Source of the DNA: Octopus vulgaris
Lineage: Eukaryota
Assembly (NCBI GenBank): GCA_951406725.2
Contig: OX597825.1
Span: forward strand, 12,028,001 to 12,092,000
Reading direction: 5' to 3'
Length of the DNA stretch: 64,000 bases
Each line of letters opens with the position of its first letter. Position 1 is the first letter of the stretch. A program made the position numbers and the translations under genes. Positions 10,235-61,170 of this stretch are shown here, piece by piece. The notes below the pieces were generated by a model. It was not told the origin of the DNA and searched no databases. It saw nothing but the letters and a program-made list of their open reading frames with translations.

Positions 10235-11055
10235 TGGTGCAGTTGATGCTGCGGCCATGCTGATGCACCGCTGTTTTGCTACACTGTTATTACTGAGAAC
10301 CTCCTCTAATATGTGGCATTTGGTGAAGAATGGAGTTTGATGTTGCTATCCTCATTTGTACCTCTTGCCGTGAGATAGGTTCATCTGGGACTCTCGACAG
10401 GAAGAAGTCCAGCTTTGGGAGTATATTAAAAAGCTGTCGGCCTCTGAAACCGAGGATGTTGCAGTAACTGGTCCTGAAGCACGATGGCGGTGCTGGGATC
10501 TTAAATGCCGTCCCGTTCTGGCATTGGTGTAGCTTTCAATGTCAAAAATTGGCACTTCCTTCCAGGATCTTCCAGATGTATATTACTGCACACCTCTCCC
10601 GCCTTCTCTTCAGGGAGTACAGTCTTAGCTGTTTCAGCCTTTCCCAGTAGCTGAGCTGTTGCAAAGAGACGATCTTCTTTGTGAATCTTCTCTGGATTGC
10701 TTCAAGGTCCGCTGTAAACTTCCACACTGGTGGATGACCATAACTGTGAGTAGTAATCCAGGCGGCTGAGGACGAATGGCCTCCAGAGGACAATCATGGT
10801 GTCCTTATCCCTAGTTCTGAAAGTTTTCAGGATCTATCCAGGCAGTGGTCTGCACTTTGTCGCCATCCTCTTGGAAAGAGGTATCATTACTCATGTCGAT
10901 ACCCAGGTCCCTTACTGATTTAAGCTCTGGGATCGAAATTCCCTGTGGACCAGTGTACCCTGTAAGTTTCATATGTAGTTTTGGACGCTGGTAGCGCAGA
11001 GCTCGGAATTTTTCAGCATTAAACTGCATATTATTATCCCGAGTCCAAGACAAAA
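10235..11055 (-). mobile_element. Decayed 5'-truncated LINE 3' end (CR1-group RT C-terminus plus 3' UTR)
   Basis: Frameshifted peptides WTRDNNMQFNAEKFRAL, KSVRDLGIDMSND and LEAIQRRFTKKI..LSYWERLKQLRLYSLKRRRER..IYIWKILEG are typical of the CR1/L2-group RT end and downstream region; the exact clade cannot be set by eye. Confidence 0.9.
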
Positions 11056-11241
11056 CAATTAGGAAACTATTCCTATAATATTTTCCATTACGTTCCCTCG
11101 TATGCTACTATATTCATTGTGCCTCCATTTCGGCCTGGAGAAACGTCCAGAAACATTAACGTACGCAGAAGCCATATAAATATAAATATGTGTGGATACA
11201 CACTCCCACCCACACAAGTTTTCACAGGCATACACGCCCCT

Positions 11242-34601: not shown

Positions 34602-34723
<122 letters not shown>

Positions 34724-34748
34724 AAAAAGCAACAAGAATGGATCAATA

Positions 34749-34837
34749 TTTCGGTACAATTGTTTCGTACGAAGACAGCTTTATTAAGGCTGCAAATATT
34801 GCAGTAAATATAAGTGACCCGTAATCATCAGCCGAAA
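34749..34837 (-). ncRNA. Type I hammerhead ribozyme, long stem II variant (one mismatch at 10.1-11.1)
   Basis: UUUCGG-CUGAUGA-U UACG...CGUA C-GAAA-CAAUUG-UA-CCGAAA: 6-bp stem I, canonical core, stem III palindrome ACAAUUGU, GUA triplet. Confidence 0.85.
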
Positions 34838-34973
34838 AAACAGCATATAGATTTCTGGTGCATCTAAGTTAAGTACCGCATTCATGTGAATTCAACAGAA
34901 CTCATTTGAATCTTAATTGCTTCTACTATATATATATATGTATATATACATATATATACATATATATGTAGAA

Positions 34974-35042
<69 letters not shown>

Positions 35043-35210
35043 TAATTATATCTAAAATATATAATTCTAATGCAAGTTAGTTGGAAAAAGTACCAACATG
35101 TTAGAAATAGAAGTCGAAAACATACTAAACCAACTATATAACTCTGTTCCACAAATGCGTGGAAACGAGCAAAATAATTTAGAGTACCTTAAACAGATAA
35201 ATAGATAATC

Positions 35211-35266
35211 TCTCATATCGATCGATTTCAGGATCTGTAATTAATACTTAACCCTCATCAGTGAGA
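35211..35266 (-). ncRNA. Type I hammerhead ribozyme
   Basis: UCUCA-CUGAUGA-GGGUU AA GUA UUAAU UAC AG AUCCU-GAAA-UCGAUCGA-UA-UGAGA: 5-bp stem I, canonical core, G-U at 10.1-11.1, stem III palindrome AUCGAUCGAU, AUA triplet. Confidence 0.85.
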
Positions 35267-36655
35267 TTCACCATAATTAGTGAAGGGTACTTGGAAAAAA
35301 CTACTAACATGCTACTTAGCCGTTAAAGTATGGCCAAAGATTATTTTGCCCGTTCCTGGCAGTCACCTTGCGCAATAGAGTGAAATAGGTGGTTTAGAGT
35401 TTTTTGAGTCCTGTTTCTGGCAAGGTGGTACTTTTGTCCCATGTACCCTCCATTGTAATTATATATTTTATATGCAATTATAAATCTATATTAATTTTTA
35501 GCTCTATGTATTTTTAAAAATGTTATTCTGGCCACTGATATTATTATTTTATAATGATAACTTTACCCTTTCATATATATGGATATTTATGTGTGTGTCT
35601 GTATTTATGGCGGAAACTGAAAGAAGTCCATCGTATATATATATATATATATATATAGTTCAGCAAAATTTAGATTCAGATGAATATGTTACTTAAGGCA
35701 AATGCACCACAATGAAATCAACCTCTCTGTCTGTATATCTACCATCTTTGTAATGTTGGCAAACGAAATAGAGATAAGAATGCGCATTGTCCGTTTAATT
35801 GAAGAATTTCTATAAGTGGTTGAAGATTGCTCGACATTTTAAAACTGGTGTAATACTTACAGTGTTTAATAAAATGAAGTGGCATGAAACGCTCGTACTA
35901 CATTACCTCGGATATACTTGTTGCTTATTTTGATTATATATATATCCTCTGCGTTACTCATTCTACAAATTTATCCCTCTGTCTATCTACCTATACATAT
36001 ATAGACATATTTAGATATATTTTGTTATAAACATATGGAAACTGATTCCCATACAAATATACATAAACAATATACGTTTGTATATATGTTTGTATGTGTA
36101 TATGCATACCAGCAAACATACACAAATGTATGTGTGGGTCCATCTGAAAGCATATTGTATTTTTATTCTTTATATTTTGCATTGTAATCCAGGCTCCTAT
36201 GATATTTGTTTAGTTTGTTTTCACTTAACGCTAGGAATTTCAGGACGCACTAAATGAGATCTATTGATCCAAGCACGAAGATTCCATTACAAATGAGAAA
36301 CATGTTTTTAGTAATAAGTTCAATGTATTTCTATATTAATAAATCATAATTGAGTCAGTGTTGATTTCAAGAATAAAAAAGTATCTTCATCTTTCATATT
36401 TTATTCATGTATTATTCCGTATGAGGTTTGGCTCGATCTGGCATTATCGTACGTTCAAAAAATATTTCAATTTAGCTAATGGATATTTTCATATAAACTA
36501 TTTGATGATTTATATGGCCTATATACTGTTTTTACATTTTGTCAATATCTTGTGGTGAGTATAAGCGTTTCCCGGGAATATGACACTCTGAGTTGGTTTC
36601 GATTCCTGTATCATTCTAATATATTTCATTTACTCCAATAATGTTTTTGTAAAAT

Positions 36656-59479: not shown

Positions 59480-59858
59480 CATATATGCAAATGGTAGAAG
59501 TCTATATGAGGGCTGATGACGGTAAAAATTACTTTACTTAGTGTCTCTATTAAAATTTATATATATATATTGGCGATGTCGTGCTATAGGTAATATAGTG
59601 TTTTATTAATGATTTCTTAGTACGTTCAATCTCTGGTTTAAATAAGCCATTTACTGCCAAGAGAGTGTCGTTCCTATGGACCCCATCAGATACGTTTGGA
59701 AAACTTTTCTTAATTTGGGAAAGGATATATAGACCCACAAAGTCTGTCACCTGGGCCGAATCTCACGAACCTATACTGATGTCGAAGTAACTAAGAAAAA
59801 ATTTCTATTTATATATTAAACGTCGTTTTTGTTTATCTTTACTTTCCTTTAAATCTCA

Positions 59859-59940
59859 CCTACTGAAGAGTACAAATTCGACCTTTATGATGTTCTCTTT
59901 ATGAAAATCTTGGTTCTTTTGTACGAAACAATTGTCTGGG
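59859..59940 (+). ncRNA. Intact type I hammerhead ribozyme, long stem II variant
   Basis: CCUA-CUGAAGA-GUACAAA..GACC...GGUU..UUUGUAC-GAAA-CAAUUG-UC-UGGG: all core residues canonical, G10.1-C11.1, 7-bp stem II, stem III palindrome ACAAUUGU, GUC triplet, 4-bp stem I with one G-U. Confidence 0.9.
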
Positions 59941-61170
59941 AATATGAAATAAAATGTTAATCCATTTTATCATCAAATCTGCTTCAGTCCATTTATTTGA
60001 TGAAATTTATTGAACTTTGTTAAATACATTAAATCTTACTTTAGTTACTTCTGTTTTAACACCTTGTTAATTAACACACTCACCGGTTCGATTTCCATTC
60101 AGTTACTTAATTATTTTTTCTAAAAATTCCGTTGCGTCTGGCAAACTTGTCAATAGTCGTCGACTGTTATCAGAGCTGCGTTCCCTTATGTTTGCTCCTT
60201 TGTGCGCATGTGTGCGCGTCAGTGTGCATGTGTATACACACATGTATGTACATATGTATGTATATGTATGTTTGTGTGTATGCATATATGCGTGTGTATG
60301 TATGCATATATATATATATATATATATGTGTGTATGTGTGTGTGTACGTTTGTATGTATATATTCTTCATATTCATATGTTCGTGTGTTCATGCGGGTGC
60401 GTGTTTCTAGTGTGTGTGTGTTTGTATTTGCTTATATTTGTCTGTGTACCTCTGTTTCCTTGAGCGTGTATAAGTGTATGCGCTTCTGTGACTATTGGTT
60501 TCTCACAGCTACAGATCTGTTTTCTACAACATGCAGCCATGTTTAACATGTAATTTGATATGTAAAATTGATATGCGGCAAGTAAACTACAACCGCAACA
60601 CGTTTCAACGTTCTTAATGTTACTCTACACTCTTAAAGATGCCCAATTACCTAACTCCAACACTATTTATCTTTTACCAAAGGAACAGCGTCATGGCACG
60701 TTCTACTTTTGTTACGAAGCCAAGATACTCACATAGCCTTAATATACCAACAATACCCTAAATATTACAAAGTGGAGGCCATTACCTTTTTAATTTTCTG
60801 CATCCTGATACCACGACTCCATATTTGTGAAGGTCTGGGTACGATATTTAAAATCAAACGTAGTACTTTTGACAATACTGTGTTGAATCAACGCGGTATA
60901 AAATACAGCTGCAACAAAATGAGTTTTGAGTAAAATTCCTTCGTTTGCTTACCTACGCAAGCACGCACACACACACACAAACACACACACACACACATAT
61001 ATATACACACACATATATATATGTATGTATGTATATAAATATATATATTCACACATATATATGCATTTGCATGTATATAAATATGTGTATGTGTTTATAT
61101 ATGCGTATGTATATAGCTATCGATATATCTGCCGTTTAATCAATTGTCCAATGTACCCATATTCATATGC

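Follow-up and report, generated by a model that had tools for sequence, protein, structure and literature searches.

Long-armed hammerhead motifs in the pseudo-LTRs of Hydra-clade PLEs in the Octopus vulgaris genome

The window analysed here is a stretch of 64,000 nucleotides of the Octopus vulgaris genome (GCA_951406725.2, contig OX597825.1, positions 12,028,001 to 12,092,000), in which a descriptor scan identified a hammerhead motif at 34831-34755 on the reverse strand, with a domain II of 58 nt and a stem I of 6 bp whose first position is unpaired (Table 1). The CUGANGA / GAA core, the A15.1-U16.1 pair and an H17 represented by A17 (34755) are those of a type I hammerhead, and the motif is confirmed as real at these positions. 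Stem III is the palindrome ACAAUUGU (34763-34756, reverse strand), and cleavage is predicted between 34755 and 34754. The usual, if not universal, G10.1-C11.1 pair at the base of domain II is absent from the window copy, in which U10.1 is opposite C11.1, and is present as G-C in its sisters. Rfam matched no hammerhead on 34721-34900 at E up to 10, and none among the best 150 of 294 rows for the whole window; the likely reason for the missing match to the window motif is its long arm. The motif lies in an insertion of 206 bp without an ORF, composed of two inverted pieces inside a (TA)n tract. Contigs of four runs, not on record as RNA, cover both pieces and carry no end, strand or level information.

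Table 1. Features of the window copy and of the comparison motif (positions in the window).
Feature	Position	Strand	Basis and remarks
Stem I 5' arm, UUUCGG	34837-34832	-	6 bp; sequence, descriptor scan; pairs covary in the 44-copy alignment A1
Stem I 3' arm, CCGAAA	34754-34749	-	Sequence, descriptor scan; pair counts in A1
Catalytic core C3-A9, CUGAUGA	34831-34825	-	Sequence; invariant except N7 in A1, whose copies were chosen by that very core motif
Domain II, 58 nt; predicted long imperfect unbranched hairpin	34824-34767	-	Folds and pair counts
Apical hairpin of domain II, CUGCAA-UAU-UUGCAG	34804-34790	-	RNAalifold, unprompted; 2 pairs changed on both sides
GAA, 8-nt self-complementary stem III and A17	34766-34755	-	Sequence, folds
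(TA)n target tract, left flank	34605-34719	.	Tandem Repeats Finder, sequence
3' pseudo-LTR (pLTR) piece, from ~88 nt before to 34 nt after predicted cut	34721-34842	-	98% alike to ORF-linked sister L109
Junction of inverted pieces, ~4 nt common to both	34839-34842	.	Overlap of alignments to L002 and L109
Inverted 'tail' piece, ~+67 to +151 past cut; 5' UTR part of next tandem copy	34844-34926	+	Alignments
(TA)n target tract, right flank	34927-34967	.	Tandem Repeats Finder
Comparison motif, long-domain-II hammerhead, family B	59859-59940	+	In pLTR-like piece 59788-about 60040; descriptor scan, sister alignments
Inverted Hydra-type RT fragment adjoining the family-B motif	59607-59792	-	47% identity over 62 aa to a family-A protein, one stop

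A preliminary description of this DNA had noted that the motif shares an identical 15-mer with a second hammerhead of the window, which is borne out by the sequence (34770-34756 on the reverse strand and 59921-59935). We found 728 exact matches to this 15-mer in the genome (2.8 Gb, 227 contigs), as against 7 for the reversed control. CTGANGA is present 50-58 nt upstream in 466 of the 728 and in none of the control, and 29 of the first 30 matches belong to the family of the window copy, here called family A (an exact core in 20, a single core mismatch in 3, truncation ahead of the core in 6), the remaining one being unrelated. Matches to the 15-mer thus mostly do carry the upstream core, as had been anticipated. 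Genomic matches numbered 1,161 for a pattern covering other basal stems (control 0) and 12,805 for one that prescribed nothing beyond the core and an ACRATYGT stem III (control 40), copy counts that reflect a few master lineages.

Long family-A copies encode an RT, a CxCX5C linker and a GIY-YIG domain upstream of the hammerhead. The earlier question of whether the flanks reach the RT/GIY-YIG ORF of a Penelope-like element (PLE), a type of retrotransposon, is thereby answered in the affirmative for sister copies (L031-L033, L094-L113), the window copy itself being without an ORF. In a search with the GIY-YIG domain 150 of 18,730 first-look candidates were scored, and 20 long copies were taken. 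ORFs counted from ATG reach 1071 aa (L095) and 957 aa (L096), and intact units of ~4.65 kb consist of an ORF with RT and C-terminal GIY-YIG and the same hammerhead at both ends, placed ~210 nt before the next ATG. In L096 the direct pLTRs measure 373 bp, are 98.9% alike and lie 4,650 bp apart, while L109, in which the hammerhead follows a 573-aa frame ending in the endonuclease, repeats the window hammerhead letter for letter except for G10.1.

The features given for the Hydra clade are a single RT and C-terminal GIY-YIG ORF with RWK, DKG altered to DKT, CxCX5C and CxxC/CxH, and no CCHH (PMC8557442). We found RWR in L095, RWK in L096 and ADKT in both, together with CxCX5C and with CxxC and CxH beside the conserved E and N; inspection by eye indicated the absence of CCHH, and in sister copies the endonuclease is C-terminal within a single ORF. 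The family also resembles Hydra-clade PLEs in its (TA)n targets, a hammerhead near the 3' end, the frequent U10.1 mismatch and a near-palindromic stem III (PMC8557442). Identity as a Hydra-clade pLTR hammerhead is practically certain, the clade assignment resting on motifs and not on a tree with named reference sequences. A Naiad/Chlamys identity for the window copy was rejected as the GIY-YIG domain is C-terminal and not N-terminal, and a retrozyme identity as the copy is single and ORF-derived instead of consisting of head-to-tail non-coding units. Asn-rich stretches (16-17% Asn) make the ORF longer than its database relatives (601-810 aa), and the elements, at ~4.65 kb with ORFs of 957-1071 aa, differ from the Hydra elements of PMC8557442, which are described as generally <3 kb. 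Among named cephalopod proteins, the two nearest relatives come from Argonauta hians (41%) and Octopus sinensis (66%, covering 19% of the query). Pfam gave no family match for any of four element proteins, and the RT part had no match among PDB sequences. The first ~200 residues of an Octopus sinensis 'ankyrin repeat protein' (P0061) correspond to the element ORF, either a gene-model artefact or a fusion.

The preliminary description also placed the two window motifs in one family. The similarity in domain II length was confirmed by the descriptor scan (58 versus 55 nt); the common family was not. BLAST around the hammerhead found no similarity between family A and family B, the family of the 59859 motif, and the 15-mer occurs in 0 of 29 family-B sisters, on which grounds a single sequence family was rejected. 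Since the 59859 motif comes from a separate, older family, the comparison of the two copies is weak evidence, and the 15-base identity between them is in part accidental. Likewise, the statements that stem I differs and still pairs and that UACG/CGUA is compensated by UACA/UGUA are correct as descriptions of the two sequences, but fail as family evidence since the latter rests on an atypical copy: before GAAA, 17 of 28 anchored family-B sisters have GUCA and none has GUAC. On the family-A model the window copy, which is in the training set, scores 104 bits and the 59859 motif 31.6 bits.

Family B has 45 matches, 77-92% alike to its window copy, which end in (TA)n ~120 nt past the cut and are often inverted. 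Its sisters (L035-L063) mostly have GU...CA at the base of stem II, placing G-A and U-C opposite each other, and these unusual core-proximal pairs may be a variant or decay. In none of 16 longer stretches was an RT connected with a B-type pLTR (L209 contains a B-like pLTR but no ORF), and none of 25 family-B upstream-extension loci gave an ORF match. The RT fragment at 59607 has relatives with hammerheads of a third long-armed family, D, and the 59560-60040 insertion may therefore be chimeric and possibly derived from two element RNAs. Family D (L195, L196, L199, L200, L201) consists of Hydra elements with an RT 40-50% identical to that of family A, and has an arm of 59-61 nt unrelated to that of family A and stem III palindromes identical to those of family A.

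Covariation, first suggested from two copies, holds across many aligned ones. Alignment A1 comprises 44 distinct but related family-A copies, hand-picked from 103 to span subfamilies, in which the letters of the core, basal stem II and stem III are fixed by the search patterns. On the proposed structure 93.8% of its cells are paired and 100 cells show a double change, values reached by 0 of 500 shuffles, as compared to 31-49% paired for slid partners; two of the five whole-structure measures applied to A1, pairs with a double change and further pair types, were not above shuffles. The double changes are located in stem I, at 10.5-11.5, within the apical hairpin and in the middle of stem III. 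Folding predicts a single long hairpin for every family-A domain II, and the small hairpin described earlier within it is indeed present, being recovered by unconstrained RNAalifold. The same program preferred a competing hairpin over stem I and basal stem II, in which the 3' arm of stem II pairs with the cleavage site. It is pairable in nearly all 44 copies, and by hiding the cleavage site could possibly act as an off-switch. This competing hairpin is made possible by GUAC-like tetramers at both basal stem II arms and at the cut site (A1 columns 76-92, window 34770-34754 on the reverse strand).

The long-arm pattern spans at least 18 sequence clusters in a wider set of 123 distinct motifs with domain II of 44-68 nt, one singleton of which looks spurious. 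Pairing across the 18 clusters was found at I.1 (17/18), I.2 (14/18), I.3 (16/18), 10.2 (16/18) and 10.3 (16/18), values matched by 0-1 of 500 shuffles, and pairing over positions 10.2-10.5 is well in excess of that in shuffles. The pair 10.1-11.1 does not covary above shuffles, being paired in 12 of 18 clusters with 74 of 500 shuffles as high, and its states among the 123 copies include G-C (57), G-U (27) and U-U (18). Position 17, a base left free in the search pattern, is non-G (A, C or U) in 123/123 copies.

These data bear on the U-C mismatch of the window copy, regarded earlier as its only defect. The mismatch is real, but it is not necessarily a defect, because U10.1 is opposite U or C in 15 of the 25 Hydra families in File S2 of PMC8557442 (our own count) and the pair lacks covariation here. 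U10.1 is private to the window copy and the family-A state is G, carried by the sisters including L109, which agrees with the earlier designation of G as the state to which the site would revert. The change from G to U likely occurred after insertion, and the window copy is likely inert, an ordinary dead fragment.

All 29 family-A copies among the first 30 matches to the 15-mer, as well as the window copy, are inserted in (TA)n. Their ends lie 34-42 nt past the cut in 18 of the 29, 151-157 nt in 10 and 173 nt in one, and six of seven inverted pairs use one end of each distance class. In 105 alignment rows, which include some loci twice and most of whose loci were selected by hammerhead presence, no insertion piece starts within 10 nt of the predicted cut, suggesting that the cut leaves no visible mark on insertions; a truncation hotspot at the cut site was not seen in these rows. 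At intact junctions both end points sit at short TA-like stretches, to which the primer may anneal. PLEs are already known for inverted 5' copies and for a tail on one side (PMC8557442), and for Anolis Poseidon reverse transcription has been shown in vitro to start at two internal sites of an uncleaved RNA (PMC11167929). We infer that the element protein would cut (TA)n DNA, that both broken (TA)n ends would prime reverse transcription at two internal sites of a template RNA uncut, or re-ligated, at the hammerhead, and that the two cDNAs would join through short shared sequence. Poseidon PAc of Anolis carolinensis (Frangieh et al. 2024, PMC11167929) is comparable in that two internal starts explain the tail and the template is uncleaved, and its target is AT-rich and cut on both strands. 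It belongs to another clade, however, and its starts are inside the ORF and not homologous to the target, whereas here they fall in the 5' UTR at TA-like stretches.

The family-A tail is ~115 nt, as compared to 30-40 bp described for PLEs (PMC8557442). An alignment of the tail from +35 to +155 past the cut (A3) contains conserved CACC/GGUG and AUGG/CCAU helices and, ahead of the distal end, one more hairpin; as these nested helices show a double change in only 1 of 9 pairs and a covariation term of 0.07, the tail hairpins are unproven as conserved structures. Another two-ended (TA)n insertion is present at 35657-35945 of the window with a long-armed hammerhead at 35810-35907 on the forward strand, which scores 68 bits on the family model, is 88% alike to L242, and has a core decayed at C3 and in stem III.

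We examined whether the palindromic stem III would join two hammerheads. Its third, central pair, which in a monomer closes a 2-nt loop, is A-U in 31, G-C in 8 and G-U in 5 of 44 copies, and one of these three in 121/123 motifs. Among the 12,805 genomic matches the G-U form (1,985) greatly exceeds the unpairable A-C form (336), and although these counts are not independent the excess supports pairing of stem III, because CpG decay of the G-C form alone would give equal numbers. Cofolding places the double hammerhead at the predicted minimum for 11 of the 44 copies, all with G10.1-C11.1 and including the G10.1 sisters of the window copy; folded as monomers, none of the 44 has the single hammerhead as its minimum. 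A competing fold beats the double hammerhead in 33/44, including the youngest intact subfamily (G10.1-U11.1), with a median gap of 3.5 kcal/mol in dimers and 3.8 kcal/mol in monomers; the U10.1 of the window copy puts the double hammerhead 1.8 kcal/mol off the minimum. These predictions agree with the weak, dimer-dependent cleavage reported for PLE hammerheads (PMC4209133; reviewed in PMC6765202, where Lunse, Weinberg and Breaker 2017 are cited for PLE hammerheads working as dimers) and with the weak axolotl U-U variant HHR_Amex2, for which 22% monomer cleavage in 1 h is given (PMC7229834).

Covariation of stems I, II and III favours the paired hammerhead, and our preferred reading, which we consider probable, is that of a type I hammerhead in a Hydra-clade PLE pseudo-LTR whose intact tandem copies likely cleave weakly as stem III-joined pairs. 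The two hammerheads of such a copy would pair through the palindromic stem III and self-cleave weakly; dimer self-cleavage in intact copies is itself fairly likely. The long arm would represent a conserved hairpin extension which leaves the core undisturbed and would most likely serve in folding or in binding protein, and we attribute a specific function to it only tentatively. It is possible, though doubtful, that in the octopod Hydra branch stem II serves as a fixed-length module of 45-65 nt that gates cleavage, such that only paired hammerheads, likely with arm-bound element protein, would form the active core, the free RNA would adopt the competing fold, and parasites of 535 bp (described below) would recruit the enzyme by the same module. 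If so, this would be a protein-docking, dimer-gated ribozyme with >12,000 copies per genome, invisible to current models.

Alternatively, the hammerhead fold may be mainly an RNA scaffold, its core, arm and downstream hairpins forming a protein site that sets the RT starts, with cleavage rare or incidental. Such a role is consistent with insertion ends that lie 34-42 and 151-157 nt beyond the cut, never at the cut itself, with the freedom of 10.1-11.1 to mismatch, with the competing folds in 33/44 copies, and with Anolis Poseidon, whose ribozyme mutants show normal insertion in vitro and whose cleavage depends on protein (PMC11167929). Against this, the core, A15.1-U16.1 and non-G17 (123/123) are kept across the 18 clusters as catalysis would require, and the 535-bp tandem non-coding units keep one intact hammerhead each; we regard the scaffold as unlikely. 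The long arm could also enable a monomer to act with no partner, via stacking or a tertiary contact with stem I, and it is true that domain II is a stable single hairpin in 17 of 18 cluster representatives (z -1.1 to -5.7) and is narrowly confined to 55-63 nt in family A. This is very unlikely, as stem III has only 2 bp in a monomer and is self-complementary across families, the hammerhead is never the predicted minimum (0/44), and no conserved loop partner was seen.

That the arm is a small retained intron or neutral insertion in an otherwise short-armed working ribozyme is scarcely credible. PLEs do retain introns, one of which ends beside the Drosophila Penelope hammerhead (PMC4209133), and the arm in the subfamily of the window copy begins with GU and contains UUUGCAG; that AG, however, is missing from the youngest intact subfamily and others, and pairing of the arm is maintained through double changes. 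Contigs of four runs over 34721-34967 held no skipping joint, which weighs little as the runs are not on record as RNA and no contig spans the stretch. A paired, weakly cleaving hammerhead remains our preferred reading.

In length the middle arm exceeds that of most relatives examined by a factor of two to five. In the 25 Hydra families of File S2 (PMC8557442), one of them from Octopus bimaculoides, loop 2 measures 3-10 nt and domain II at most about 26 nt, as compared to 55-63 nt in family A. A metagenome sample comprised 78 Hydra-type loci; a 3' flank of 150 nt or more was available for 51, and a hammerhead is present in 30 of the latter. Domain II is 10-29 nt in the 30 elements, in a search that permitted lengths up to 110 (no match in 510 shuffles), versus 44-68 nt in the long-armed motifs of this genome. 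The minimal dimeric PLE hammerheads (Cervera and de la Pena 2014, PMC4209133) are alike in their pLTR type I topology, short palindromic helix III, many families per genome, and solitary and inverted copies 100-700 bp apart, but have a helix II of 4-8 bp with a small loop in place of the ~58 nt with a conserved apical hairpin seen here. A printed precedent for the long arm is PLE-X1 of Selaginella, with hammerhead loops of 34 and 29 nt and a domain II of ~53 nt in PLE-X1_sMoe, flagged as deviating (PMC8557442). As presented there, these are endonuclease-less, Chlamys-related plant elements at rDNA, in single families and with no palindromic 8-nt stem III.

In a query-anchored, midpoint-rooted RT tree of genomic, metagenomic and database relatives, built without named references or an outgroup and with L031 and L113 dropped as too short, 20 short-armed metagenome elements are set apart (support 100) from the long-armed families A and D and from the Argonauta protein. 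As both A and D are long-armed, the arm looks old and lineage-wide, single origin being unproven. A Hydra clade with hammerhead has already been reported in Octopus bimaculoides (Hydra-1_Obim; Craig et al. 2021, PMC8557442). Long-armed Hydra or octopus hammerheads were not described anywhere in the literature searched, and the main text of a 2026 octopus repeat annotation (PMC13282606) has no occurrence of hammerhead, ribozyme or Hydra. The preliminary description proposed a real, possibly undescribed lineage on a mobile RNA: a conserved long-domain-II lineage on a mobile element is what we found, but the carrier is a protein-coding PLE of a known clade and not an undescribed RNA. The long arm as a large radiation looks to be undescribed, and what is new is a structural variant of the known Hydra-clade ribozyme, at very high copy number.

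The role of hammerheads in PLEs has been called unclear (PMC8557442), and cleavage is reported to be dispensable in vitro (PMC11167929). This genome offers many natural variants, young intact elements bearing direct pLTRs, a palindrome whose covariation predicts pairing into dimers, and tandem parasites that share the motif, which together make this role directly testable. With >12,000 long-armed motifs, of which the one tested had no Rfam match, ribozyme censuses based on short-loop models are expected to undercount.

The parasites are tandem non-coding units of 535 bp (L236, G000:C1:16526556-16529082; L237; L238), >99% alike within an array and each having one long-armed hammerhead, an inverted 5' piece and (TA)n ends, which makes them a retrozyme-like family with a PLE insertion signature. 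Metazoan non-LTR retrozymes (PMC7229834; bioRxiv 10.64898/2026.07.22.740005) resemble the present motifs in the type I hammerhead, dimer cleavage and tolerance of U-U at the base of helix II. They are described as tandem non-coding units, a form matched by the 535-bp family, whereas the window copy is the truncated end of an autonomous element.

Short-armed Hydra elements coexist in this genome, as seen from the compact element L139:2-1290, 38-48% identical to pieces of the family-A protein, behind which lies a hammerhead-like motif whose arm measures ~31 nt (by eye). Also in the window, a repeat at 35036-35281 (-) contains a short-armed type I hammerhead (motif about 35216-35266) with a 25-nt domain II and a 10-nt palindromic stem III. 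This is an old family, with 56 matches 68-89% alike, inverted architecture and microsatellite ends, for which a link to an ORF was not found. Elsewhere in the window, broken reading frames at 10293-11104 (-) resemble what we take to be the C-terminal region of a LINE reverse transcriptase.
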